A program made the position numbers and the translations under genes. From assembly GCF_963921235.1 (NCBI RefSeq), contig NC_086108.1, forward strand, positions 44,208,001-44,272,000: a DNA stretch of 64,000 nt, written 5' to 3'. A model generated the notes under the pieces. It saw only the letters and a program-made list of their open reading frames with translations. It was not told the DNA's origin and searched no databases. Positions 3,388 to 42,677 of the stretch are shown here, one piece after another (the first letter of the stretch is position 1; every line of letters begins with the position of its first letter). Source of the stretch: Mobula hypostoma (taxonomy: Eukaryota).

Positions 3388-3640
3388 TAACACACACAAA
3401 ATGCTGGAAGAACTCAGCAGGTCAGGCAGCATCTAGGGAAAGAAATAAACAGTCGCGTTTCTGGCCGAGACCCTTCATCATGACTGGCAAGGAAGTGGGG
3501 AGGAAGCCAGGATAAGAAGGTGGGAGGAGGAGGGGAGGGGAAGGAGTTCATGCTGGCAGGTGATGGGTGAAGGCAGGTGAGGGAGAAGGTAGGTGGATGG
3601 GGGAGGAAGGTTGAAGTGCAAAGCTGGGAGGTAATACTTG
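3388..3640 (-). mobile_element. Penelope-like element pseudo-LTR tail with degenerate hammerhead motif (3450-3486)
   Basis: Same tail sequence (acacacaaaatgctgg...cagcatct...gacccttcatca) as the coding PLE copies. Confidence 0.75.
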
Positions 3641-4249: not shown

Positions 4250-7200
4250 GGCGAAACTTGGAGGGGGAGGGATGAAGCAAAGAGCTAGGAAGTTGATTGG
4301 TGAAAGAGACAGAAGGCCATGGGAGAAAGAGGAGGGGGGAAGGAGGAGCACTAGAGGGAGGCGATGGGCAGGCAAGGAGATAACATGAGAGAGGGACAAG
4401 GGGACGGGAAATGGTGAAGGTGGGTGGGGGGAGAGGCATTACTGGAAGTTTGAGAAATCGATCTTTGTGCCATCAGGTTGGAGGCTACCCAAACGGAATA
4501 CAGTACAAGGTGTTGTTCCTCCAACCCAAGTGTGGCCTTAGGAAAGGGCCACACTTAGACCGATGGTTTGAGATGCATCTATTTTAATGCAAGGAGTATT
4601 TTGAACACAGCGGATGAGCTTAAAGAGTGGATCAGTACTTGGAGCTATGATGTTGAGGCCATTACAGAAACTTGGATGGCTCGGGGGCAGGAATGGTTAC
4701 TTCAAGTGCCAGGCTTTAGATGTTTCCGAAAGGGAGGCAAAAGAGGTGGGAGCATGACACTGTTGATCGGAGATAGTGTCACGGCTGCAGAAAAGGAGGA
4801 AGTCATGGAGGGATTGTCTACGGAGTCTCTATGGGTGGAAGTTAGGAACAGGAAGAGGTCAATAACTCTACCAGGTGTTTTTTTTTATATAGACCACCCA
4901 ATAGTAACAGGGACATTGAGGAGCAGACAGGGAGACAGATCCTGGAAAAGTGTAATAATAACAGGGTTGGCTTGGTGAGAGATTTTAATTTCCCAAATAT
5001 TGATTGGCATGTCCCTAGATCGAGGGTTTAGATGGGGTGGAGCTTGTTAGGTGTGTTCAGGAAGGTTTCTTGACACAATATGTAGATAAGCCTACAAGAG
5101 GAGAGACTGTACTTGATCTGGTATTGGGAAATGAATCTGGTCAGGTGTCAGATCCCTCAGTGGGAGAGCAGTTTGGAGATAATGATCACAATTCTATCTC
5201 CTTTACCATAGCATTGGAGAAGGATAGGAACAGACAAGTTAGGAAAACATTTAATTGGAGTAAGGGGAAATATGAGGCTATCAGGCAGGAACTTGGAAAC
5301 ATAAATTGGGAACAGATGTTCTCAGGGAAACGTACAGAAGAAATGTGGCAAATGTTCAGGGGATATTTGCGTGGAGTTCTACATAGGTACGTTCCAATGA
5401 GACAGGGAAAGGATGGTAGGGTACAAGAACCATGGTGTACAAAGGCTGTTGTAAATCTAGTCAAGAAGTAAAGAAAAGCTTACGAAAGGTTCAAAAACTA
5501 AGTAATAATAGAGATCTAGAAGATTATAAGGCTAGCAGGAAGAGCTTAAGAATGAAATTAGGAGAGCCAGAAGGGGCTATGAGAAGGCCTTGGCGGACAG
5601 GATTAAGGAAAACTCCAAGGCATTCTACAAGTATGTGAAGAGCAAGAGGATAAGACATGACAGAATTGGACCAATCAATCGGTGACAGTGGAAAAGTGTG
5701 TATGGAACTGGAGGAGATAGCAGAGGCACTTGATGAGTACTTTGCTTCAGTATTCACTATGGAAAAGGATCTTGGCGATTGTCGGGATGACTTACAGTGG
5801 ACTGAAAAGCTTGAACATATAGATATTAAGAAAGAGGATGTGCTGGAGCTTCTGGAAAGCATCAAGTTGGATAAGTCACCGGGACCGGATGGGATGTACC
5901 CCAGGCTACAGTGGGAGGCGAGAGAGGAAATTGCTGAGCCTCTGGGGATGATCTTTGCATCATCAATGGGGACGAGACAGGTTCTGGAGTATTGGAGGGT
6001 TGCGGATGTTGTTCCTTTATTCAAGAAAGGGAGTAGAGGTAGCCCAGGAAATTATAACCAGTGAGTCTTACTTCAGTGGTGGGTAAGTTGATGGAAAAGA
6101 TCCTGACAGGCAGGATTTATGAACATTTAGAGAGGCATAATATGATTAGGAATAGTCAGCATGGCTTTGTCAAAGGCAGGTCGTGCCTTACAAGCCAGAT
6201 TGAATTTTTTGGGGATGTGACTAAACACATTGATGAAGGAAGAGTAGTAGATGTAGTGTATATGGATTTCAGCAAGGCATTTGATAAAACACCCCATGCA
6301 AGGCTTATTGAGAAAGTAAGGAGGCATGGGATGCAAGGGGACATTGCTTTGTGGATCCAGAATTGGCTTGCCCACAGAAGGCAAAGAGTGGTTGTAGACA
6401 GGTCATATTCTGCATGGAGTTCAGTGACCAGTGGTGTGCCTCAGGGATCTGTTCTGGGACCCCTACTCTTCGTGATTTTTACAAATGACCTGGATGAGGA
6501 AGTGGAGGGATGGGTTAGTAAATCTGCTAATGACACAAAGGTTGGGGGTGTAGTGGATAGTGTGGAGGGCTGTCAGAGGTTGCAGCAGGACATTGATAGG
6601 ATGCAAAACTGGACTGAGAAGTGGCAGATGGAGTTCAACCCAGATAAGTGTAAGGTGGTTCATTTTGGTGGTCAAATATGATGGCAGAATATAGTATTAA
6701 TGGTAAGACTCTTGGCAGTATGGAGGATCAGAGGGATCCTGGGGTCTGAATCCATAGGACACTCAAAACTGCTGCGCAGGTTGACTGCGTGGTTAAGAAG
6801 GCAAACGGTGCATTGGACTTCATCAATCGTGGGATTAGGAGCCGAAAGGTAATACTGCAGTCATATGGGACCCTGGTTAGACCCCACTTGGAGTACTGTG
6901 CTCAGTTCTGGTCGCCTCACTACAGGAAAGGTGTGGAAACCAGAGAAAGGGTGCAGAGGAGATTTACAAGGATGTTGCCCAGATTGGGGGGCATGTCTGA
7001 TGAGAATAAGTTGAGTGAACTCGGCCCTTTCTCCTTGGAGCGACAGAAGATGAGAGGTGACCTGATAGAGCTGTACAAGATGATGAGAGGCATTGATCGT
7101 GTGGGTAGTCAGAGGCTTTTTTACAGGGCTGAAATGGCTAGTATGAGAGGGCATGGTTTGGTCTTTTTGGAAATCAGACCAGAGTGAATACTCTGAGGTG

Positions 7201-7835
7201 TGTTATGGAACAGAGGGATGTCATAGTAAAAGTGCAAGGTTTGCTGAAAATGGCACGGCAGGCTGACAAGTTGAAGAAGGCAGGTTTGGGCACGCTGGCC
7301 TTCATCAGTCAAGGCATTGAGTATAGGATTTGGGAAGTTATGTTGCAGCACTGCAGACATTTTTGAGTTCGCACTTGGAGGATTGTGTACAGTTTTGGTC
7401 ATCCTGTCAGAGGAAAGGTGCTTGGGAGTAGGTACAGAGGAGATATCAGGAGTAAGTTTTTTTTACGGAGATAGTGATGAGTGCGTGGAATGGGCTGCTG
7501 GCAACGGTTGTGGAGGCAGATTCTACAGGGTCTTTTAAGAGACTCCTGGATAGATACATGGAGTTTAGGAAAATAGAGGGGTAAAATAGATCATTTCTAA
7601 GGTATGAACATGTTCGGCACAGCATCGTGGGCCAAAGGGCCTGTATTGTGCTGTAGGTTTTCTATGTTTCTATGATATACAGGAGGCCACTCCGGGAGCA
7701 CCGAACACAGTAAATGACCCCAACAGACTCACAGATGAAGTGTTGCCTCACCTGGAAGGACTGTCTGGGGCTCTGAATTGTAGTGAGGGAGGAGGTGTAG
7801 GGGCAGGTTAGGCACTTGTCCCGCCTGCAAGGATA
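4250..7835 (-). mobile_element. PLE fragment (4250-4538 and 7674-7835) split by a CR1 insertion
   Basis: pLTR and GIY-YIG C-terminal sequence on the left continues as GIY-YIG sequence right of the CR1 tail. Confidence 0.7.
4540..7673 (+). mobile_element. CR1 LINE, near-complete ORF2 (APE + RT) with frameshifts and stops
   Basis: YFNARS, AITETW, DKSPGPDG, YMDFSKAFDK, SGVPQGSVLGPLLF, RPHLEYC; 3' tail tttctatgtttctatg. Confidence 0.92.
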
Positions 7836-8141
7836 AGATTACCATGCTGGTAAACCTGTTTCTGCACTCTTTATATTTTAATAACACCTTTCCTCTGACA
7901 GGATGACCAAAACTGTACACAATCCTCCAAGTGCGAACTCAAAAATGTCTGCAGTGCTGCAACATAACTTCCCAAATCCTATACTCAATGCCTTGACTGA
8001 TGAAGGCCAGCGTGCCCAAACCTGCCTTCTTCAACTTGTCAGCCTGCCGTGCCATTTTCAGCAAACCTTGCACTTTTACTATGACGTCCCTCTGTTCCAT
8101 AACACACCTCAGAGTATTCAATCTGGTCTGATTTCCAAAAA
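7164..8141. repeat. 257-bp inverted repeat (7164-7420 versus 7885-8141), two mismatches seen
   Basis: Near-identical ORFs on opposite strands (7121..7402- versus 7903..8289+), checked by reading the nucleotides. Confidence 0.92.
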
Positions 8142-9524: not shown

Positions 9525-10572
9525 GCAACACACATAAAATGCTGGAGGAACTCAGCAGATCAGGCAGCATCTATGGAAAAGAGTAAACATGCTATGTCTC
9601 GGGCCGAGACCCTTCTTCAGGATTGGAAAGGAAGGGAGAAGACACCAGAATAAAAAGGTAGGTGGAGGGGAAGGAGGATAGCTGGAAGGTGATAGGTGAA
9701 GCCAGGTGGGTAGGAAAAGAAAAGGGCTGGAGAGGAAGGAATTTGATAGGAGAGGAGAGTGGACCATAGGAGAAAGGGAAGGAGGAGGGGACCCAGAGGG
9801 AGGCAACAGGCAGGTGAGAAGAAGTAAGAGACCAGAGTGGGGAATAGAAGATGAGGGTAGGGGGAGGGAAAATTACATGACTGGAAGGAGAAACTCATAT
9901 TCATGCAACCCAGTTGCAGGCTATCTAGATGGAATATGAAGTGATGCTCCTCCATCCTGAGGGTGGCCTCATTGCATCACAAGAGAAGGTCATGGACTGA
10001 CATGTCAGAACAAGAATGCAAATCGGAATTAAGGTGTTTGGCCACCGGGAAGTTCTGCTTTTGACAGATGAAGCACAGATGCTTGATGAAGCGGTTGCCC
10101 AATTTGCAGCAGGTCTCACCAATGCGTTGGAGGCTGCATTATACAATAGACAACAACAGCAGATTCACAGGTGAAGCGTTGCCTCACCTGGAAGGACCTC
10201 ACTGGTGAAAAAAAAAATCCCTCCCCCTCCCTCCTCTTCTTCTAATCCCCACTCTGGCCTCTTGCCTCTTCTCGCCAGCCTATTGCTTACCCCTGGGTCC
10301 CCTCCTCCTTCCCTTTCTCCAATGGTCCACTCTCCTCTCCTATCAGATTTTTTCTTCTCTCGCCCTTTACCTTTCTTACCCTCCTTCATTCACCTATCAC
10401 CTTCCGGCTATCTTCCTTCCCCTCCCCCACCTTTTTATTCTGGTGTCTTCCCCCGTTTCCTTTCCAGTCCTGAAGAACGGTCTCAGCCCGAAATCTTGCA
10501 TCTTCGTTCATTCCAGCATTTTGTGTGTCTTGCTTTGGATTTCCGGCAACTGCACAATTTCTTGTGTTAGTG
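9525..10572. mobile_element. Inverted PLE pair (minus copy about 9525-10197, plus copy about 10200-10570)
   Basis: Mirror-image pLTR sequence and GIY-YIG remnant; possible flanking duplication aatcaaa (9518-9524 / 10573-10579). Confidence 0.75.
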
Positions 10573-10669
10573 AATCAAATCCTGGTCTGATTGTTTCTGA
10601 TCTACATTGCACAGATGTATTCAGAGTGACAGGATAGGCATCTTTAAACTAATTTATCTGTCAATAACA

Positions 10670-10790
10670 CAAGAGATTCTAGAAGTCCAGAGCAACAGGC
10701 ACAAAATGCTGGAGGAACTCAGCCCGTCAGGCAGCATCTATGGAAACGAATAAACAGTCTACATTTCAGGCTGAGACCTTACATCAGATT
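10670..10790 (-). mobile_element. Short PLE tail fragment
   Basis: cacaaaatgctggaggaactcagc...catttcaggctgagacctt tail motif. Confidence 0.7.
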
Positions 10791-23300: not shown

Positions 23301-23689
23301 AAAGAGTACAGGAGTTGGAGGTCACACACTCAACATTTCAGAAACAGCTTCTTTCCCTCTGAATGGACAATTAATCCATGAATACTATCTCACTATTTTT
23401 CTTCTCTTTTGTTACACTACTTATATATATTAATTTGTATTTTTTATTATATACTGCGATGTACTTCTGCCATATGTCATGTGACCAGCAACAATGAATT
23501 ATCAATTGAGGCAGGTTTTATAAAAACCAAACAAATATTTATTAAACTCTGCTCAACAACAGCGAAAAGTATTCAAACGACTAACTTAACCAGAAGTTAA
23601 CTGCTATACAGCAACTCTGGAACAGTTCTTAAAAGGGTAAATTCGAAAACAGTTCTTAAAGTGGTAAATTCGAAAGTCCAAGTGATTTA

Positions 23690-24448
23690 GATTAGATTAT
23701 GAGGACACACAGTCCTCTTTTATTGGACGAAGGATCTCGGCCTGAAACGTCGACTGCACCTCTTCCTAGAGACGCTGCCTGGCCTGCTGCGTTCACCAGC
23801 AACTTTGATATGTGTTGCTTGTCCTCTTTTATTGTCATTGAGTAATGCATGCATTAAGTAATGATACAATGTTTTTCCAGAATGATATCACAGAAACACA
23901 TGACAAACCGACGGAAAAACTGACAAAAACCACATAATTATAACATATAGTTACAACAGTGCAAAGCAATACCGTAATTTGATAAGAACAGACCATGGGC
24001 ATGGTAAAAGTCTCAGAGTCTCTCGAAAGTCCCATCATCTCACGCAGACGGTAAACCTCCAGTGCCGCAAACTTGCCGATGCGGCATCCTGGAAGCATCT
24101 GACCAGAGTCCAACTCCGAGTCCGTCTGAAAACTCCGAGCCTCCGACCAGCTCTCCGACACCGAGCACCGAGCACCATCTCTGCCGAACACTTTGACCCC
24201 GGCCCCGGCAACAGGCAACAGGCAATAGGCAAAGCCAAGGATTTGGGGCTTTCCCCTCCAGAGATTCTCGATCGCACAGTAGCAGCAGCAGCGAAGGGGG
24301 CATTTCAGAAGTTTCACCAGGTGTTCCTCCGTGCTTCTTCACGTCTGTCTCCATCAAATCAGGATTGTGCACGGCATCCTAGTTCACAAATACGATATCA
24401 ATTCGGAGCGGCCACGTGTGCTGCATCACGCCATCTTCTCCTCCCTCC
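23690..24448 (-). mobile_element. Non-autonomous retroposon family X, copy 1
   Basis: Homologous end to end with 28291-28967 and 34171-34846; (TAATC)n 3' tail; possible TSD ttta. Confidence 0.8.
23726..23820 (+). mobile_element. 95-bp PLE tail insertion with 14-bp TSD
   Basis: TSD gtcctcttttattg at 23712-23725 and 23821-23834; the other two family X copies show the empty site. Confidence 0.9.
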
Positions 24449-26239: not shown

Positions 26240-26570
26240 CTGAGTTATCCTTTTTCCATCATTTCGGTGGCCCTCTCACTCCTTCTCTTCTCTTCCCCCT
26301 GCCCTCAGGACCTGCCCATCACCCCCCTGATTCCCCATCTCCTTCCCTTTATCCCATAGTCCATTGTCCTCTCCTGTCAGGTTCCTTCTTATTCAGCCCT
26401 TTGTCTTTTCCTCCTAGTAACTCCAAGCATCTCATACTGTCCCCCCCTCCCCCACCTGGTCTTACCTATCACTTGCTGGCTTGTTTTCCATCCCTTCCCT
26501 CCATCTTTTTATTCTGCCTTCTCCCTTCTTCCTTTCCAGTGTCGATGAAGGGCCTCAGCTGGAAATGGTG
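26240..26570 (+). mobile_element. Old PLE pseudo-LTR fragment
   Basis: Pyrimidine-rich pLTR ending in a degenerate gatgaagggcctcagctggaaa motif. Confidence 0.65.
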
Positions 26571-27260: not shown

Positions 27261-28290
27261 CTTGAGCTACATGAGCTTCAAACACTGCAACAGATCAAGG
27301 AAGTGCAGAGTTACCTGATGTGGTGTTTCGGCAGGTAGTCACGCCCATTAGTCTAACTGCTGGGCAATACCATTTGTTTAATTTGGTCTGTAATTGGGGA
27401 CAAGGGCATGTGACAAGAGGTAGGTCTGGAGGAGCCTCAGCCCTAGAGCCTGTCCAACAGCTCTGAGATTCTTGCTCCCTATGAGGGCGATTGTGGTGTG
27501 TGTGCTTAGCCCACTGCTCTACTCTCTGTATACACATGACTGTGTGGCTAGGCATTGCTCAAATACCATCTATAAATTTGCTGACGATACAGCCATTGTT
27601 GGTAGAATCTCTGGTGGTGACAAGAGGGCGTACAGGACTCAGATATGCCAACTAGTGGCATGGTGCCACAGCAACAACCTGGCACTCAATGTCAGTAAGA
27701 CAAAAGAGCTGATTGTGGACTTCAGGAAGAGTAAGACAAAGGAGCACATGCCAATCCTCATAGAGGGATCAGAAGTGGAGAGAGTGAGCAGCTTCAAGTT
27801 CCTGGGTGTCAAGATCTCTGAGGATCTAACCTGGTCCCAACATATCAATGCAGTTATAAAGAAGGCAAGACAGCGGCTATACTTCATTAGGAGTTTGAAG
27901 AGATTTGGCATGTCAACAAATACACTCAAAAACTTCTATAGTTGTACCATGGAGAGCATTCTGACAGGCTGCATCAATGGTTGGTATGGTGGAGCTACAG
28001 CACAGCACCGAAAGAAACTGCAAAAGGTTGTAAATCTAGTCAGCTCCATCTTGGGCACTAGCCTACAAAGTACCCAGTACATCTTTAGGGAGTGGTGTCT
28101 CAGAAAGGCGGCATCCATTATTAAGGACCTCCAGCACCCACGGCATGCCCTTTTCTCACTGTTACCATCAAGTAGGAGATACAGAAGCCTGAAGGCACAC
28201 ACTCAGCGATTCAGGAACAGCTTCTTCCCCTCTGCCATCCAATTCCTAAATGGATATTGAAGCTTTGGGTAATATACAGTATTTCTGATT

Positions 28291-28967
28291 AGATTAGATT
28301 ATGAGAAAACTCAGTCCTCTTTTATTGTCATTTAGAAATGCATACATGCATTAAGAAATGATACAATGTTCCTCCAGAGTGATATCACAGAAAACAGGAC
28401 AACCCAAAGACTAACACTGACAGAACCATATAATTATAACATATAGTTACAGCAGTGCAAAACAATACCAGAATTTGATAAAGAACAGACCATGGGCACG
28501 GTAAAAAAAAAGTCTCAAGTCCCGATCGACTCCTGAGTCCCCGATAGCAGATGGCAAAAGGGAGGAACTCCCTGCCATAAACCTCCAAGGCACCGACAAG
28601 TGCCGATGCCTTGGAAGCAGCCGACCACAGCCGACACCGAGTCCATCCATCCAAAAACTTCGAGCCTCTGACCAGCCCCTCCAACACAGCCTCCCAAGCG
28701 CCATCCTCTGCCAAGCGCCTTTGACCTAGCTCCGGCCGCCGAAACAAGCAAAGCCGAGAATTCGGGGCCTTCTACTCCAGAGATTCCGGTTACCACACAG
28801 TAGCAGCGGCAGCAAAGCGGGCATATCAGAAGTTTCTCCAGATGTTCCTCCGTACTCTCACGTCCGTCTCCATCAAATCAGAATTGTGCACGGTCCCCTA
28901 CTTGACAGATTACAGATATTCACCGGAGAGGCAGCGTGCCCTGCGTTACGCTGCCATCTTCTCCTCC
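28291..28967 (-). mobile_element. Non-autonomous retroposon family X, copy 2, with 8-bp TSD
   Basis: TSD ttctgatt at 28283-28290 and 28968-28975. Confidence 0.85.
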
Positions 28968-29075
28968 TTCTGATTTTGCACATTTTTAAAAATCTATTCA
29001 ATATATGTAATTGATTTACTTGTTTATTTATTATTATGTTTTGTTTTATTTATTTATTTTTTTCCTCTAGATTAT

Positions 29076-29886: not shown

Positions 29887-30602
29887 ATTATGTATTGCAT
29901 TGAACTGCTGCTGGTGCTAAGTTAACAAATTTCACGTCACATGCCGATGGTAAAAAAACCTGATTCTGATTCTGATTCTGATTGTAGGATGGATGAGCAA
30001 TCTGATCATGGCGTCATGGTTCAGGGAACCATTTGGGGTGGTGGCGGGAGGAAGAGAAAAGAGAAATGCAATTGAAATTGGGGATAGTACAGATGGGGAA
30101 ATGGACACTACCTCAAGTACCAAGAGTCCCGAAAGCTGCGTTGCCTGCCTGGTACCCGGGTTTCGGACTTCTTATCAGACTTTTCATGGAGTGGAGGGGA
30201 AATACTCAGTTGTGGGTACCATCAACATACTGTATGCAGGAGGACTGGAGCTCTGCTGAGGGGACCTAAGCAGCTGGGCACTAAATTAAAAGGCAAAACC
30301 AATAAGGTAATAATCTCTGGATTGCTACCAGGGTCACGTGTAAATTGACATGGGGTCAATAAGATCAGAAAGCTAAATGCTTGGCTCAAAGATTGGTATG
30401 GAGAAGAGGGTTTGAATGACAGGCTGCACCTGAATCATGCTGGGACCAGGGCACAGACATAGTAGGGCTGTGAATAGGGCATTGAACTAAATAGCACGGG
30501 AGGTGGGAAAATATGGATAAAATAACCAATAAGGAGAGTGTAGAAGTAATTACTGAAGTCTCTAGGATAAAAAAAACTAAGGCAGAAAGTTTAAAAAGAA
30601 AC

Positions 30603-31168
30603 CTACTCTACTGTCAAGATGAAGCCACACTCAGGTTGGAGGAACAACACCTTATATTCCGTCTGGGTAGCCTCCAACCTGATGGCATGAACATTGACTT
30701 CTCTAACTTCCATTAATGCCCCACCTCCCCTTCGTACCCCATCCCTTATTCATTCATTCATTTATTTATTATTCTTTTCCCCCATTTTTCCTCTCTTTTT
30801 TCTCCCCCTGTCCCTCTCACTATAACTCCTTGCCCATCCTCTGGATCCCCCCCCCTTTCTTTCTCACTAGACCTCCCGTCCTATGATCCTCTTCTTTCTC
30901 CAGCCTCATATCCCTTTTGCCAATCAACTTCCCAGCTCTTAGCTCCATCCCTCCCCCTCCTGTCTTCTCCTATCATTTTGGATCTCCCCCTCCCCCTCCC
31001 ACTTTCAAATCTCTTACTATCTCTTCTTTCAGTTAGTCCTGACGAAGGGTCTTGGCCCAAAACGTCGACTGTACCTCTTCCTATAGATGCTGCCTGGCCT
31101 GCTGCGTTCACCAGCATTTTTGTTTTGGTGTGTGTTGCTTGAATTTCCAGCATCTGCAGATTTCCTCG
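30603..31168 (+). mobile_element. PLE 3' part (GIY-YIG C-terminus and pLTR) with hammerhead motif at 31035-31070
   Basis: [36 protein letters not shown] followed by pLTR. Confidence 0.88.
31035..31070 (+). ncRNA. Minimal type I hammerhead ribozyme motif in a PLE pLTR (G-to-A change in the GAAA box)
   Basis: AGTC-CTGACGA-A-GGG-TCTTGG-CCC-AAAAC-GTC-GACT. Confidence 0.75.
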
Positions 31169-33309
31169 GCTTTGCGTACACAATACTCCAAGTGTGGTCT
31201 CATGAGTGCCTTTATAGAGGCTCAACATCACATCCCTGCTCTTATATTCTATACTTCTAGAAATAAATGCCAACATTGCATTTGCCTTTTTCACACTGAC
31301 TCAACCTAGAGGTTAACCTTTAGAGTGTCTTGCACAAGGACTCCCAAGTCCCTCTGCATCTCTGCATTTTGAATGCTCTCTCCATCTAAATAATAGTCTG
31401 CCCATTTATTTCTTCCACCAAAGTGCATGACCACACACTTTCTAACATTGTGTTTCATTTGTCACTTCTTTGCCCATTCCCCTAAACTATCTAAGTCTCT
31501 CCGCAGGCTCTCTGTTTCCTCAACACTACCTGCTCCTCCACCTATCTTTGTATCATCGGCAAATTTAGCCACAAACCTATTAATTCCATTGTCTAAATAT
31601 CATTGACATACATCATAAGAAGCAGCGGTCCCAACATCGAACCCTGTGGAACTCCACTGGTAACTGGCAGCCAACCAGAAAAGGATCCTTTTATTCCCAC
31701 TCTCTGCTTTCTGCCGATCAGCCAATGCTCCACCCAGGCTGGTAGCTTCCCTGTAAATGCATGGACTCGAATTTTGCTAAGCAGCCTCTTGAGCGGCACC
31801 TTGTCAAAAGTCTTCTGAAAATCCAAGTACACCACATCCACTGCATCTCCCTTGTCTACCGTGCTTGTAATTTCCTCAAAAAATTGCAGTAGGTTAATCA
31901 AGCAGGACTTTCTTTTCAGGAAACCATGCTGGCTTTGGCCTATCTTGTCATGTGCCTCCAGGTACTCCATAATTTCATCCCTAACAATCGATTCCAACAA
32001 CTTCCCAACCACTGATGTCAGGTTAACAGGACTATAGTTTTGTTTCTGCTGCCTCCCACCCTTCTGAAATAGCGGAGTAACATTTGCAATTTTTCAGTCA
32101 TCTGGTACAATGCCAGAATCTATCGACTCTTGAAAGATCATTGTTAATGCCTCTGCAATCTCTCCAGCTGCTTCCTTCAGAACCCGAGAGTGCATTCCAT
32201 CAGGTCCAGGAGATTTATCCACCCTCAGACCATTAAGCTTCCTGAGCACCTCCTCAGTCGTAATTTTCACTGCACGTACTTCACTTCCCTGACACTCTTG
32301 AATGTCCGGTATACTGCAGATGTCTTCCACTATGAAGACTGATGCAAAATACGCATTCAGTTCCTCTGTCATCTCTGCATCTCTCATTACAATATTTCCA
32401 AAGGCATTTTCTATTGGTCCTATATCTACCCTTGACTCTTTTACCCTTTATATACTTAAAAAGCTTTTATCCTTTGATACTACTTGCCAGCTTCCTTTCA
32501 TAATTCATCTTTTCCTTCCTAATGACCTTCTTTGTTTCCTTCTGCAAGTTTTTAAAAGCTTCCCAATCCTCTATTTTCCCACTAGCATTGGCTTCCTTGT
32601 ATGCCCTCTCTTTTGCTTTTATTTTGGCTCTGACTTCACTTGTCAGCCACGGTAGTGTCTTTCTTCCATTCAAAAATTTCTTCTTATTTGGAATATATCT
32701 GCCTTGCACTTCCCTCATTTTCTCCAGAAACTCCAGCCATTGCCTCTCTGCTATCCTTCTTGCTAGTGTCCTTTTCCAGTCAACTTTGGCCAGTTCCCTT
32801 CTCATGCAATTGTAATTTCCTTTAATCCACTGAAATACTGACAGATTGGAATTTCGTTTCTCCTTCTCAAATTTAAAAGTGAACTCGATCATATTGTGAT
32901 CACTGTTCCCTTATCACCTCCGGATCATTGCACAACACCCAGTCCAGCACAGCCGATCCCCTAGTGGGTTCAACAATAAACTGTTCTAAAAAGCCATCCC
33001 TTAGACATTCTATAAATTCTGTCTCGAGGTCCAGCACTGGCCTGGTTTTCCCAACCCACTTTCATGTCAAAATCCCCAGTGATTATCATGACATTGCCCT
33101 TCTGACATGCCTTTTCCATCTCCTGCTGTAATTTGTAATCCACATCCCGGATGCTGTTTGGAAGCCTGTATTCCTCTTTCTCAGCCCCATCACTCTGGGT
33201 CCCATCCCCCTGCCAAATTAGTTTAAACCCTCCTTGACAGCTCTACTAAATGTGCCCGCTAGGATATTGGACCCCTTTGGGTTCAGGTGTAACCTGTCCT
33301 TTTTGTACA

Positions 33310-34170: not shown

Positions 34171-34846
34171 GATTAGATTATGAGGACACTCAGTCCTCGT
34201 TTATTGTCATTTAGAAATGCATGCATTAAGAAATGATACAATGTTCCTCCAGAGTGATATCACAAAAAAAGCAGGACAAACCAAAGACTAACACTGACAA
34301 GACCACATAATTATAACATATAGTTACAGCAGTGCAAAGCAATACCATAATTTGATAAAGAGCAGACCATGGGCACGGTAAAAAAAAAGTCTCAAGTCCC
34401 GATCGAATCCCAATAGACCTGATAGCAGGCGGCAGAAGGGAGAAACTCTCCCTGCCATAAACTTCCAGGCACCGACAACTGCCGATGCATTGGAAGCACC
34501 CGACCACAGCCGACTCTGAGTCCGTCCAAAAACTTCGAGCCTCCGACCAGCCCCTCTGATACAGCCTCCTGAGCACCATCCTCTGCCGAGCACTTTGACC
34601 CCGCCCTGGCCACCAAGCAACAAGCAAAGCCGAGGACTCGGGGCCTCCTCCTCCGGAGATTCCGGATCACACAGTAGCAGTGGCAGCGAAGCAGGCATTT
34701 CAGAAGTTTCTCCAGATGTTCCTTCGTTCTCTCACGTCTGTCTCCATCAAATCAGGATTGTGCCCAGCACCCTACTTGACAGATAACAGATATCATTCAG
34801 CGGAGTGGCTGCTGCGCGCTGCGTCGCGCCGCCATCTTCTCCTCCT
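34171..34846 (-). mobile_element. Non-autonomous retroposon family X, copy 3
   Basis: 5' AGGAGGAGAAGATGGCGGCGCG, 3' AATAAA...CATAATCTAATC. Confidence 0.85.
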
Positions 34847-35359
34847 CATGCTATTCTTGCACTCACTCGCACATGGCACAGGCAGCAATCCTGAGATTAC
34901 TACCCTGGAGGTCCTGCTTTTCAGCTTCCTACCTAACTCCCTGAACTCTCTCTTCAGGACCTCCTCCCTTTTTCTCCCTCTGTCATTGTCACCAACATGG
35001 ACCAAGACTTCTGGCTGTTCACCTTCTCCCTTCAGAGGATACACATTCTATCGTAAAGATGAGCAGGTGGGATGGCTTTATTGGTAAAAATTGAAATCAA
35101 ATCCTTAGCAAGAAGTTTCATAGAATTAGAAGACAGAATCCTAACAAGTAGTGTTAAGAAAATGCAAGAATAAAAAGAACCTGAAGAAAGTTCACCCAAA
35201 CAGTAGCCAGAATGTGAGGGAACCAAATAGCAACAGTAGATGGTAAAGGCAAAGGGGAATTTCAATATTCAGGTAGACTGGGAAAAATCAGTTTGATCAA
35301 CACACACGCAAAATGCTGGTGAACGCAGCAGGCCAGGCAGCATCTATAGGAAGAGGTAC

Positions 35360-35395
35360 AGTCGATGTTTCGGGCCGAGACCCTTCGGCAGGACT
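35360..35395 (-). ncRNA. Minimal hammerhead ribozyme motif in a PLE pLTR (core substitutions)
   Basis: AGTC-CTGCCGA-A-GGG-TCTCGG-CCC-GAAAC-ATC-GACT. Confidence 0.65.
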
Positions 35396-35642
35396 AACTG
35401 AAAGAAAAGATAGTAAGAGATTTGAAAGTGGGAGAGAGAAGGGGAGATCTGAAATGATAGGAGAAGACAGGAGGGGAAAGGAATGGAGTTAAGAGCTGGA
35501 ACGTTGATTGGCAAAAGGGATACGAGGCTGGAGAAGGGAGAGGATCATGGGGCGGGAAGTCCAGGGACACAGAAAGGGGGAGGGGAGCCTAGAGGATGGG
35601 CAAGGAGTTATAGTGAGAGGGACAGTGGGAGAAAAAAAAAGG

Positions 35643-35822
35643 GGGAGAGGGAGAGGGAGAGGGAGAGGGAGAGGGAGAGGGAGAGGGAGAGGGAGAGGGA
35701 GAGGGAGAGGGAGAGGGAGAGGGAGAGGGAGAGGGAGAGGGAGAGGGAGAGGGAGAGGGAGAGGGAGAGGGAGAGGGAGAGGGAGAGGGAGAGGGAGAGG
35801 GAGAGGGAGAGGGAGAGGGAGA
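35643..35822. repeat. (GGGAGA)n hexamer microsatellite, about 30 units
   Basis: Read directly. Confidence 0.97.
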
Positions 35823-38109
35823 GAGAAAGAGAAAAATAAGGGATGGGGTACGAAGGGGAGGAGAGGCATTAATGGAAGTTAGAGAAGTCAAGTGTTCATG
35901 CCATCAGGTTGGAGGCTACCCAGACGGAATATAAAGTGTTGTTCCTCCAACCTGAGTATGGCTTCATCTTGACAGTAGAGGAGGCCGTGGATAGACATAT
36001 CAGAATGGGAATGGGACAAGGAATTAAAATGTGAGGCCACTGGGAGATCCTGCTTTCTCTGGTGGACAGAGCGTAGGTGTTCAGTGAAACGGTCTCCCAG
36101 TCTGCGTCGGGTCTTGCCAATGTATAGAAGGCCACATCGGGAGCAGCGGATGCAGTATATCACCCCAGCTGGCTCACAGGTGAAGTGTCGCCTCACCTGG
36201 AAGGACTGTCTGGGGCCCTGAATGGTGAAGGGAGGAAGTGCAAGGGCAGGTGTAGCACTTGTTCCACTTACAAGGATAAGTGCCGGGAGGGAGATCGGTG
36301 GGAAGGGATAGACAAGGAATAGACAAGGGAGTCGAGTAGGGAGCGATCCCTGTGGAAAGCAGGGGGGGAGGGAGGGAAAGATGTGCTTGGTGGTGGGATC
36401 CCGTTGGAGGTGGCGGAAGTTACGGAGAATTATATGTTGGACTCGGAGGCTGGTGGGGTGGTAGGTGAGGACAAGGGGACCCCTATTCCTAGTGGGGTGA
36501 CGGGAGGATGGGGTGAGAGCATATGTGCGTGAAATGGGAGAGATGCGTTTGACGGCAGAGTTGATGGTGGAGGAAGGGAAGCCCCTTTCTTTAAAAAAGG
36601 AAGACATCTCCTTCGTCCTGGAATGAAAAGCCTCATCCCGAGAGCAGATGCGGTGGAGACGGAGGAATTGTGAGAAGGGAATGGCATTTTTGCAAGAGAC
36701 ACGGTGGGAAGAGGAATAGTCCAGGTAGCTATGAGAGTCCATAGATTTATCGTAGACATCAATAGATAAACTGTCTCCAGAGATAGAAACAGAAAGATCT
36801 AGAAAGGGGAGGGAGGTGTCGGAAATGGACCAGGTAAACTTGAAGGCAGGGTGAAAGTTGGAGGCAAAGTTAATGAAGTCAATGAGCTCAGCATGCATGC
36901 AGGAAGCAGCGCCAATGCAGTCGTCGATGTAGCGAAGGAAAAGTGGGGGACAGATACCAGAATAGGCTTGGAACATGGATTGTTCCACAAAGCCAATAAA
37001 AAGGCAGGCATAGCTCGGACCCATGCGGGTGCCCATAGCTACACCTTTAGTTTGGAGGAAGTGGGAGGAGCCAAAGGAGAAATTATTAAGAGTAGATACT
37101 GCATCTCAAGAGAAGGAGTTTGTAGAATGCCTACAATATGGCTACTTCGGGCTTTTTGTGGCCGAGCCCATTAAGGAAAAGGCAACTTTGGACTTGGTGT
37201 TGTGCAATGAACCAGATTTTATTAAGGAGTTTAAGTAAAGGAATCTTTAGGAGACAGTGATATTAATATGCTAAAATTCACCCTGCATTTTGAGAGGTAG
37301 AAGCTAAAATCATATATACATATATATCTCTACCTCCACCATTATCTCTATATACCGTATCACTATATACCGTATCACTATATAAATAAAATCAGTATTA
37401 CAGTTGAGTAAAGGTAATAGCCAAAGTTGATAGATAGGAAGGGGAGACTAGCAGCGATGATGGTAGAGCAAAAATGACAGGAGTTTCTGGGAGTATTGCA
37501 AAAATTAGCAGGAAGCTAAAGGATTGGGAAGCTTTTAAAACCAATGGAAACAAACAAAGAAAACAATAATTGGAGAAAGGATGAAGTATGAAGAATGAAG
37601 ATAAGCAGACCAATAATATAAAAGTCTTTCCCCAGATATATATAAAGAGTAAAAGAGGCAAGAGTTGACATAAAATTATGGGAAAGTGACACTGGAGAAG
37701 TAGTAATGAAGTGCAAAGTACTGTAACAGCAGATGAACTGAAGTAGTATTTGGCATCAGTCTTCATTATGGAAAACACAAGCAACATGCTAAAAATTAGA
37801 GAGAGTTAAAGAGGCAGAAGTGAGTGTAGTCACTATTACTAAAGGAGAAGGTATTTGGGAAGCTGAAAGATTTGAATATAGATGAGTCACCTGGACCAAA
37901 TAGACTACACCTCATGGTTCTGAAAAAAGTAACTGAAGAGATTTTAGAGGTATTAGTTGTGATCTTTCAAGAATCACTAGATTCTGGAATGGTTCCAGAA
38001 CACTGGAAAATTGCAAATGGCATTCCACACTTAAATGAAGAGAGGAAACCAAAAGACAAGAAATTACAGTCCAATTAGCCTGATTTCAGTGGATGGTGGG
38101 GTTTTAGAG

Positions 38110-42587: not shown

Positions 42588-42677
42588 AAGCAACGCACAT
42601 CAAAATTGCTGGTGAACACAGCAGGCCAGGCAGCATCTCTAGGAAGAGGTACAGTCGATGTTTCGAGCTGAGACCCT
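42588..42677 (-). mobile_element. About 90-bp PLE tail insertion in a CR1
   Basis: PLE tail sequence interrupts the CR1; imperfect duplication tttgccttc / tttaccttt. Confidence 0.8.

Follow-up and report, generated by a model that had tools for sequence, protein, structure and literature searches.

A 95-bp insertion in the genome of Mobula hypostoma is, as judged by sequence comparison, the solo 5′-truncated end of a ~3.5-kb EN+ Penelope-like element (PLE), and the 5′ ends of its relatives accumulate in a narrow zone at the 5′ edge of the element's hammerhead ribozyme. On balance, we lean toward an account in which the insert arose by TPRT from the shorter of two start sites in the tail, with the cDNA running off the 5′ end of the RNA. 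Taken by itself, the insert is one of tens of thousands and ordinary for its known class, and its value is that of a pointer; the weight of the argument is carried by the population statistics.

The insert, its target site and its parent element

The window analyzed here is a 64,000-nt stretch of contig NC_086108.1. The insert occupies positions 23726–23820 (plus strand) and is flanked by a 14-bp TSD, GTCCTCTTTTATTG, at 23712–23725 and 23821–23834; the two copies match exactly and cannot be extended on either side. It breaks a ~680-bp interspersed element (23687–24447, minus strand) whose 3′-end AATAAA is carried on the minus strand of the 5′ TSD copy. The third and last exact occurrence of GTCCTCTTTTATTG in the window is the empty site at 28314, within a host copy at 28289–28970 (minus strand), and a further host copy at 34171–34846 (minus strand) has an empty site at 34193 with one mismatch to the TSD. 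Alignment of the insert-bearing element with these two copies left a clean 109-base gap, equal to the insert plus one TSD, and the target site was uninterrupted in 14 more host copies, fetched as loci spanning the site. These results bear out the earlier note, which had described a 95-bp insertion starting inside CUGACGA, a perfect 14-bp TSD and empty sites near 28315 and 34195. RNA contigs yielded no usable start, end or splice joint, and their sole feature at this locus was a 109-base skip, which is accounted for by the paralogous host copies. The host element is abundant and often full length, with a GC-rich head, a poly(A) signal and a (TCTAA)n end, and it resembles a non-autonomous LINE derivative. 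The target begins with CAGTCCT (23710–23716), a match to the element's own −5 to 0 (AGTCCT), which is absent from the insert; since all host copies carry CAGTCCT, the match is probably due to chance.

Positions in the element are numbered from the first base of the insert (+1 = 23726), corresponding to G5 in the CUGACGA core of the hammerhead, with C3 at −1, helix I formed by −6 to −2 and +27 to +31, and predicted cleavage between +26 and +27. From G5, the insert (+1 to +95) runs through helix II, GAAA and the palindromic ACGUC loop, followed by a tail stem-loop that extends to the short start site; it was 97–98% identical to the best genomic copies. By the motif layout of PMC4209133, the predicted cleavage site lies after 23751 and the 3′ strand of helix I at 23752–23756. 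A minimal type-I hammerhead was present in the pLTR by sequence and predicted fold, and an Rfam scan of the window gave no hits at the gathering score, hammerhead included. The motif has in common with the minimal type-I hammerheads of metazoan PLEs (PMC4209133) the CUGANGA box, an extra A before helix II, GAAA, a palindromic loop III and a short helix I. The insert differs from these in missing C3, U4 and the 5′ strand of helix I and therefore cannot fold as a ribozyme on its own; it was classed as a solo, short-tail monomer with a broken hammerhead core. The motifs reported in PMC4209133 are mostly single ones from truncated PLEs, with some opposite-strand pairs, and the available text of that paper holds no map of truncation points.

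The PLE origin claimed for the insert was supported by the parent element. Its single ORF encodes an RT (Pfam RVT_1, E = 8e-5) followed by a C-terminal GIY-YIG domain (E = 4e-4), both below the gathering cut-off, and an RT DKG-type motif and the GIY-YIG were recognizable in the translation. The linker that joins the RT to the EN, CKRNKCYTC, is of the type CX4CxxC and agrees with the CX2-5CxxC linker that defines the Neptune clade (PMC8557442), unlike that of Poseidon PAc (PMC11167929); by this motif, the element would be labeled Neptune-type. Full-length copies run from the tail through a 5′ UTR to an ATG at about +165, with a unit length of about 3.5 kb by arithmetic from long copies, and pLTRs or partial tandems in which the tail runs on into the body were seen (L212, L221–L250). 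An optional 30–40-bp tail, an inverted 5′ copy and a TSD were all found in the family.

The 3′ ends of 65 random young copies were bimodal, with 35 at +73 to +97, 29 at +121 to +136 and one in the body. Priming at the tail, as the earlier note had proposed, was supported, with two start sites there, but the particular end that it named (...tgtgttgctt) is the shorter of the two 3′ end classes, and full-length copies continue into the 5′ UTR and ORF. The exact tail 38-mer (+58 to +95) occurs 10,739 times in the genome. A random sample of 133 10-kb stretches contained 195 tail matches, of which 65 represented the young family and 130 older tail families, whose stubs and twins were visible by eye. 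The 5′ end lay at −25 or downstream in 30 of the 65 young copies, which corresponds very roughly to 80,000 short arms genome-wide.

Other copies are present in the window. The family is represented by a second solo stub (about +5 to +95/98) at 42588–42677 (minus strand), which interrupts a different repeat; its ~8-bp duplication, judged by eye, is imperfect. A longer 5′-truncated relative with a long tail (−415 to +132) at 30602–31177 (plus strand) reveals the sequence upstream of the ribozyme, and sequence comparison identified another with a short tail, reaching from beyond −1363 to +92, at 35298–36926 (minus strand). Older PLE tail families that share the ribozyme and tail layout occur at 3389, 9523, 10218–10787, 13584, 16215 and 26323–26566. 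The window also contains a LINE-like, 257-bp inverted repeat of 99% identity (7164–7420 and 7885–8141) that encloses a LINE piece and an inverted PLE fragment (7675–7837), and that we read as a recent rearrangement or an assembly feature. Elsewhere in the genome, one copy (L261; G000:C1, near 1,877,000, minus strand) is a mini partial tandem of a 342-nt unit (−59 to +283) that contains the ribozyme, the tail and the ORF start; it makes about two turns, ends at the short start site and can be read as retrozyme-like or as the product of copying around a small circle.

Excess of 5′ ends at the ribozyme edge

Rates of 5′ truncation were taken from two sets of copies. The consecutive set comprised the first 91 genomic matches of the tail 38-mer, a query blind to the ribozyme, scored against one genomic copy from the matching subfamily; it demands an exact match to +95, so that short-short pairs are under-counted. 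The random set comprised the 133 stretches above (1.33 Mb), in which the young family was scored. A further 60-copy set served for twins and short ends and was excluded from the rates, since its long copies, aligned to one reference, broke at subfamily differences (−155, −166, −257). The first 30 loci were kept outside all rates, since their query contained the ribozyme.

In the consecutive set, 7 copies ended at +58 to +28, 6 at +27 to +10, 38 at +9 to −25 and 18 at −26 to −438, while 22 were longer. Of the 78 copies at risk, 38 came to an end within the 35-nt zone from −25 to +9, compared with 18 of the 40 at risk in the following 413 nt; expressed per base at risk, the rate in the zone was 13.0 times that upstream (p = 6e-20) and 6.0 times that downstream (p = 1e-9). 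Uniform truncation was thus rejected, and the excess of ends at the ribozyme that the earlier note had suspected from two cases was confirmed. The random set agreed (18 of 53 ends in the zone; 14.2-fold upstream, 4.7-fold downstream), and in the 45 copies without an inverted arm the zone rate was 9.1 times that upstream and 10.4 times that downstream. Ends recurred at −21 to −19, −9/−8 and −5/−4, and the start of the insert at +1 falls on the downstream shoulder of the peak. The ends of solos were found in −25 to +9 in 13 cases versus 2 in +10 to +57, mainly at −21 to −3, where they adjoin the TSD; no joined element exon was seen in 22 solos. Since TSDs adjoin many of the zone ends, these are real junctions rather than alignment breaks.

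Among 30 body-linked copies, 13 reached beyond −60, 8 ended in −26 to +9, 2 at −43/−58 and 7 downstream of +27, and the 5′ pLTRs of body-linked copies had zone ends in 8 of 23 cases, scored by eye from BLAST rows. Copies reaching beyond −60 made up 36 of the 91 in the consecutive set. Genome-wide, 1295 junctions were counted at −5, 305 at +27 and 83 at +30, giving normalized rates of about 11, 1.4 and 0.4%, respectively; these are pattern counts normalized with estimated copy numbers and flank frequencies and carry a wide error, with denominators from 17 and 33 matches. Copies starting exactly at +27 numbered 0 of 91 in the consecutive set and 1 of 60 in the second set. A smaller cluster of 5′ ends was observed at −302 to −337, near the stop codon of the ORF (L274, L330, L335, L336, L337 and L376; 6 of 91), with 8 ends in −301 to −438.

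Head-to-head twins and a proposed double-ended priming

The consecutive set resolved into 89 events. Of the short ones, 34 were twins in head-to-head orientation and 16 were solos or others; most stubs are therefore twins, a class missing from the earlier note. Across both sets, 57 of 58 distinct twins paired a long-tail arm (end at +120 to +137) with a short-tail arm (end at +56 to +100, mostly +90 to +95), the exception being long-long; under an independent choice of each tail with probability 0.5, such a pairing has p = 2e-9. In the random set, seven of eight twins were long-short by program and the eighth by eye. When TSD lengths and target motifs were tabulated, as the earlier note had proposed, TSDs were found in 51 of the 58 twins with a length of 10–18 bp, mostly 12–15 bp, which makes the 14 bp of the insert a typical stagger. 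Targets were AT-rich (65%) and two-fold symmetric: relative to the TSD center, 32 of 51 had A at −14 and 35 of 51 had T at +13. Strong homology between primer and template was rejected: overlaps were noisy and averaged 0.5 nt for long ends and 2.0 nt for short ends.

In 31 of 57 twins the short arm extended 5′ past the long arm by 5 nt or more, with the reverse in 16 and a tie in 10. Since the tail is on the long arm only, the arms of those 31 twins are not nested and neither can be a fold-back copy of the other. Both arms agreed at the polymorphic, unselected site +54 in all 33 twins scored (20 T, 13 C), which points to a single RNA species as template, although gene conversion between the arms of the palindrome could contribute.

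These results suggest that twins arise by priming at two start sites from both of the cut DNA ends, which the Anolis protein permits in vitro (PMC11167929). A dimeric endonuclease would cut an AT-rich site of two-fold symmetry with a stagger of ~14 nt, and each DNA 3′ end would then prime on one and the same RNA species, at about +128 in one case and at about +93 in the other. Two surviving cDNAs would anneal through self-complementary stretches of the ribozyme to give a head-to-head twin, and a single surviving cDNA would give a solo such as the insert. In its general form, PLE integration would be an asymmetric, double-ended priming in which both cDNAs run off a transcript end at the 5′ edge of the ribozyme. 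Stubs would then be integrated "strong-stop" cDNAs, and a single reaction would give rise to the inverted pLTR, the one-sided tail and the solo stub alike; this is a tentative proposal, to which we give slightly less than even credence. In the twin priming of L1, a second DNA end primes on the RNA and a 5′ inversion results inside the TSD, with arms that mostly represent different RNA segments. In the present twins, unlike in L1, both arms represent one stretch of ~100 nt, copied from two fixed start sites.

The stop zone and its relation to described elements

Our best guess from the genomic copies is that the stop zone is explained by run-off at an RNA 5′ end. TPRT would start at the shorter of the two internal tail sites, yielding the insert, and the cDNA would run off an RNA with its 5′ end shortly upstream of the hammerhead, in a pool that mixes a major start or trimmed end with longer read-through RNAs. 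Upstream of −5, the RNA is pyrimidine-rich and has no partner once its downstream part sits in the hybrid, and the frequent ends at −5, −9 and −20 begin at an A after a pyrimidine, in words that are presumably initiator-like. The many copies that pass −60, both body-linked and consecutive, indicate that many templates continue upstream, which counts against a single hard end. The breadth of the zone and its overlap with an alternative hairpin (−20 to +10) and with a branch-point/acceptor-like stretch mean that other causes fit as well, and the equation of the zone with a transcript 5′ end, be it a start site or a nuclease-trimmed boundary, is the least certain part of the account. The transcription start of D. 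virilis Penelope is located within the pLTR, some 120 nt ahead of helix I (PMC2377424, PMC4209133).

Double-ended priming could also be retained with a stop that is set by the cDNA or RNA sequence, fold-back or annealing to the other cDNA causing it to leave the template; the elements responsible would be the inverted repeat at −20 to +10 and the palindrome GTC-CT-GAC. The alternative hairpin covers the end peak almost exactly, most of the last ten cDNA bases are pairable with the RT at −6 to −18, and GAC/GTC is common to many twin junctions. The cDNA hairpins are weak, however (−3 to −4.5 kcal/mol), and not stronger than at +30 to +60, where ends are few; moreover, partnerless solos show the same peak (9.1-fold), and short arms end at −5/−4 in 15 of 57 twins regardless of the long arm, all of which leaves this explanation unlikely. 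The earlier note had reverse transcription tending to stop at the ribozyme structure. Stalling of the RT on a folded (or protein-bound) hammerhead, or copying of ribozyme-cleaved RNA, would agree with the clustering of ends over the ribozyme, with the 6 of 91 in +10 to +27 and with the excess of junctions at +27 over +30. Yet a stalled RT should leave ends at or downstream of the 3′ foot of a helix (+31 or +18), and template cleavage should leave them at +27, where starts are nearly absent; most ends lie at or 5′ of the last helix, after the RT has crossed every helix. The junction at −5 alone has about eight times the normalized rate of +27, many +27 junctions read AG|GAC, the helix-I microhomology of twins, and the monomer fold is weak (z 0.13) and no more stable than shuffles. 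Since the main class continues past the whole ribozyme and does not end at the cleavage site, we regard a stall at structure as quite improbable, and stalling and cleavage as largely refuted for that class. A minor cleaved-RNA class is possible: the small bump at +27 (305 versus 83, with one control position) may reflect it, and helix-I microhomology partly explains the bump. A template produced by hammerhead cleavage was rejected for the insert, which starts at +1 and not at +27. The earlier note was therefore right about position and probably wrong about mechanism.

Alternatively, the zone could be a 3′ splice site, with cDNA synthesis ending at a splicing intermediate's branch or at the point where a spliced RNA departs from element sequence. 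Positions −27 to −4, at the 5′ end of helix I (e.g., L229:1337–1360), resemble such a site, with TACTCAC or TACTAAC followed by TCTTCCTTCAG, which supplies a branch A at −20, a pyrimidine tract and AG at −9/−8 and −5/−4 (the tract being followed by CAG), and it is at −21 to −19, −9/−8 and −5/−4 that ends recur; the intron of D. virilis Penelope likewise ends at the 5′ end of helix I (PMC4209133). Against this, an upstream element exon was seen in 0 of 22 solos, no GT..AG joint into the zone occurred among the 15 listed of 53 RNA-contig joints, and the AG at −5/−4 is needed by helix I anyway, which makes splicing a very doubtful cause. We attach almost no probability to the stubs being a SINE-like or retrozyme-like family that propagates itself in short units, even though copies of similar size number in the tens of thousands, one tandem mini-unit (L261) exists and animal retrozymes derive from PLE pLTRs (bioRxiv 2026.07.22.740005). 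The 5′ ends and twin junctions of the stubs vary copy by copy, the part of the body behind the tail needed by the Anolis protein (PMC11167929) is lacking from them, and variants are common to stubs and long copies. The SINE-sized class of the earlier note thus stands as to size (~90–160 bp) but not as to SINE nature: ends are heterogeneous, and no body lies behind the tail. A SINE was rejected on the absence of a fixed head, with 5′ ends spread over −25 to +70, and a non-LTR retrozyme was rejected for the insert, a monomer with a broken core, L261 being the only short tandem among the 91 copies.

Run-off at an RNA 5′ end after priming at two sites, our preferred reading, concerns an anatomy that is already published: truncation, solo pLTRs, the inverted arm, the one-sided tail, the TSD and two start sites. 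Described EN+ PLEs (PMC8557442; Pen2a_Av, PMC3846280) resemble the present family in having an RT with a C-terminal GIY-YIG and a hammerhead in the pLTR, as well as heavy 5′ truncation, an inverted arm, a tail at one end, a TSD and solo pLTRs. In those papers the tail is ascribed to endonuclease resolution and the inversion to self-priming, whereas here the non-nested arms of 31 of 57 twins exclude fold-back; TSDs are mostly 13–15 bp here versus 8–10 bp there, and the 5′-end hotspot is quantified here. Poseidon PAc of Anolis carolinensis (PMC11167929) has in common with our family two start sites that bound the tail, cutting and extension of both strands (observed in vitro), AT-rich targets and little primer-template homology. 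Its ATG lies inside the hammerhead, in contrast to the one behind the tail here, and its start site in vitro was equal between strands, which counts against strand asymmetry. In the available text of that paper "inverted" is used once, for a blocking group, and inverted copies are not treated. Within the full-text literature outside subscription papers, we found neither a positional analysis of a 5′-end hotspot relative to the hammerhead nor an account of the inverted pLTR as the result of asymmetric double priming. As to the origin of the inverted pLTR and one-end tail of PLEs, the statistics favor two primings at two start sites over self-priming. The sharp stop zone and two-site priming lead to direct predictions for the in vitro system already in use, namely which start site each strand takes and where stops fall relative to the RNA 5′ end. 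PLE stubs the size of the ribozyme should be annotated neither as SINEs nor as ribozyme-cleavage products.

A few copies depart from the two tail start sites. Four of the 30 body-linked copies (L226, L232, L234 and L236) stop 125–134 bases into the body, at about +262 to +271, and the twins L085 and L328 include pieces of +140 to +265; together they suggest that there is perhaps a third start site behind the tail.
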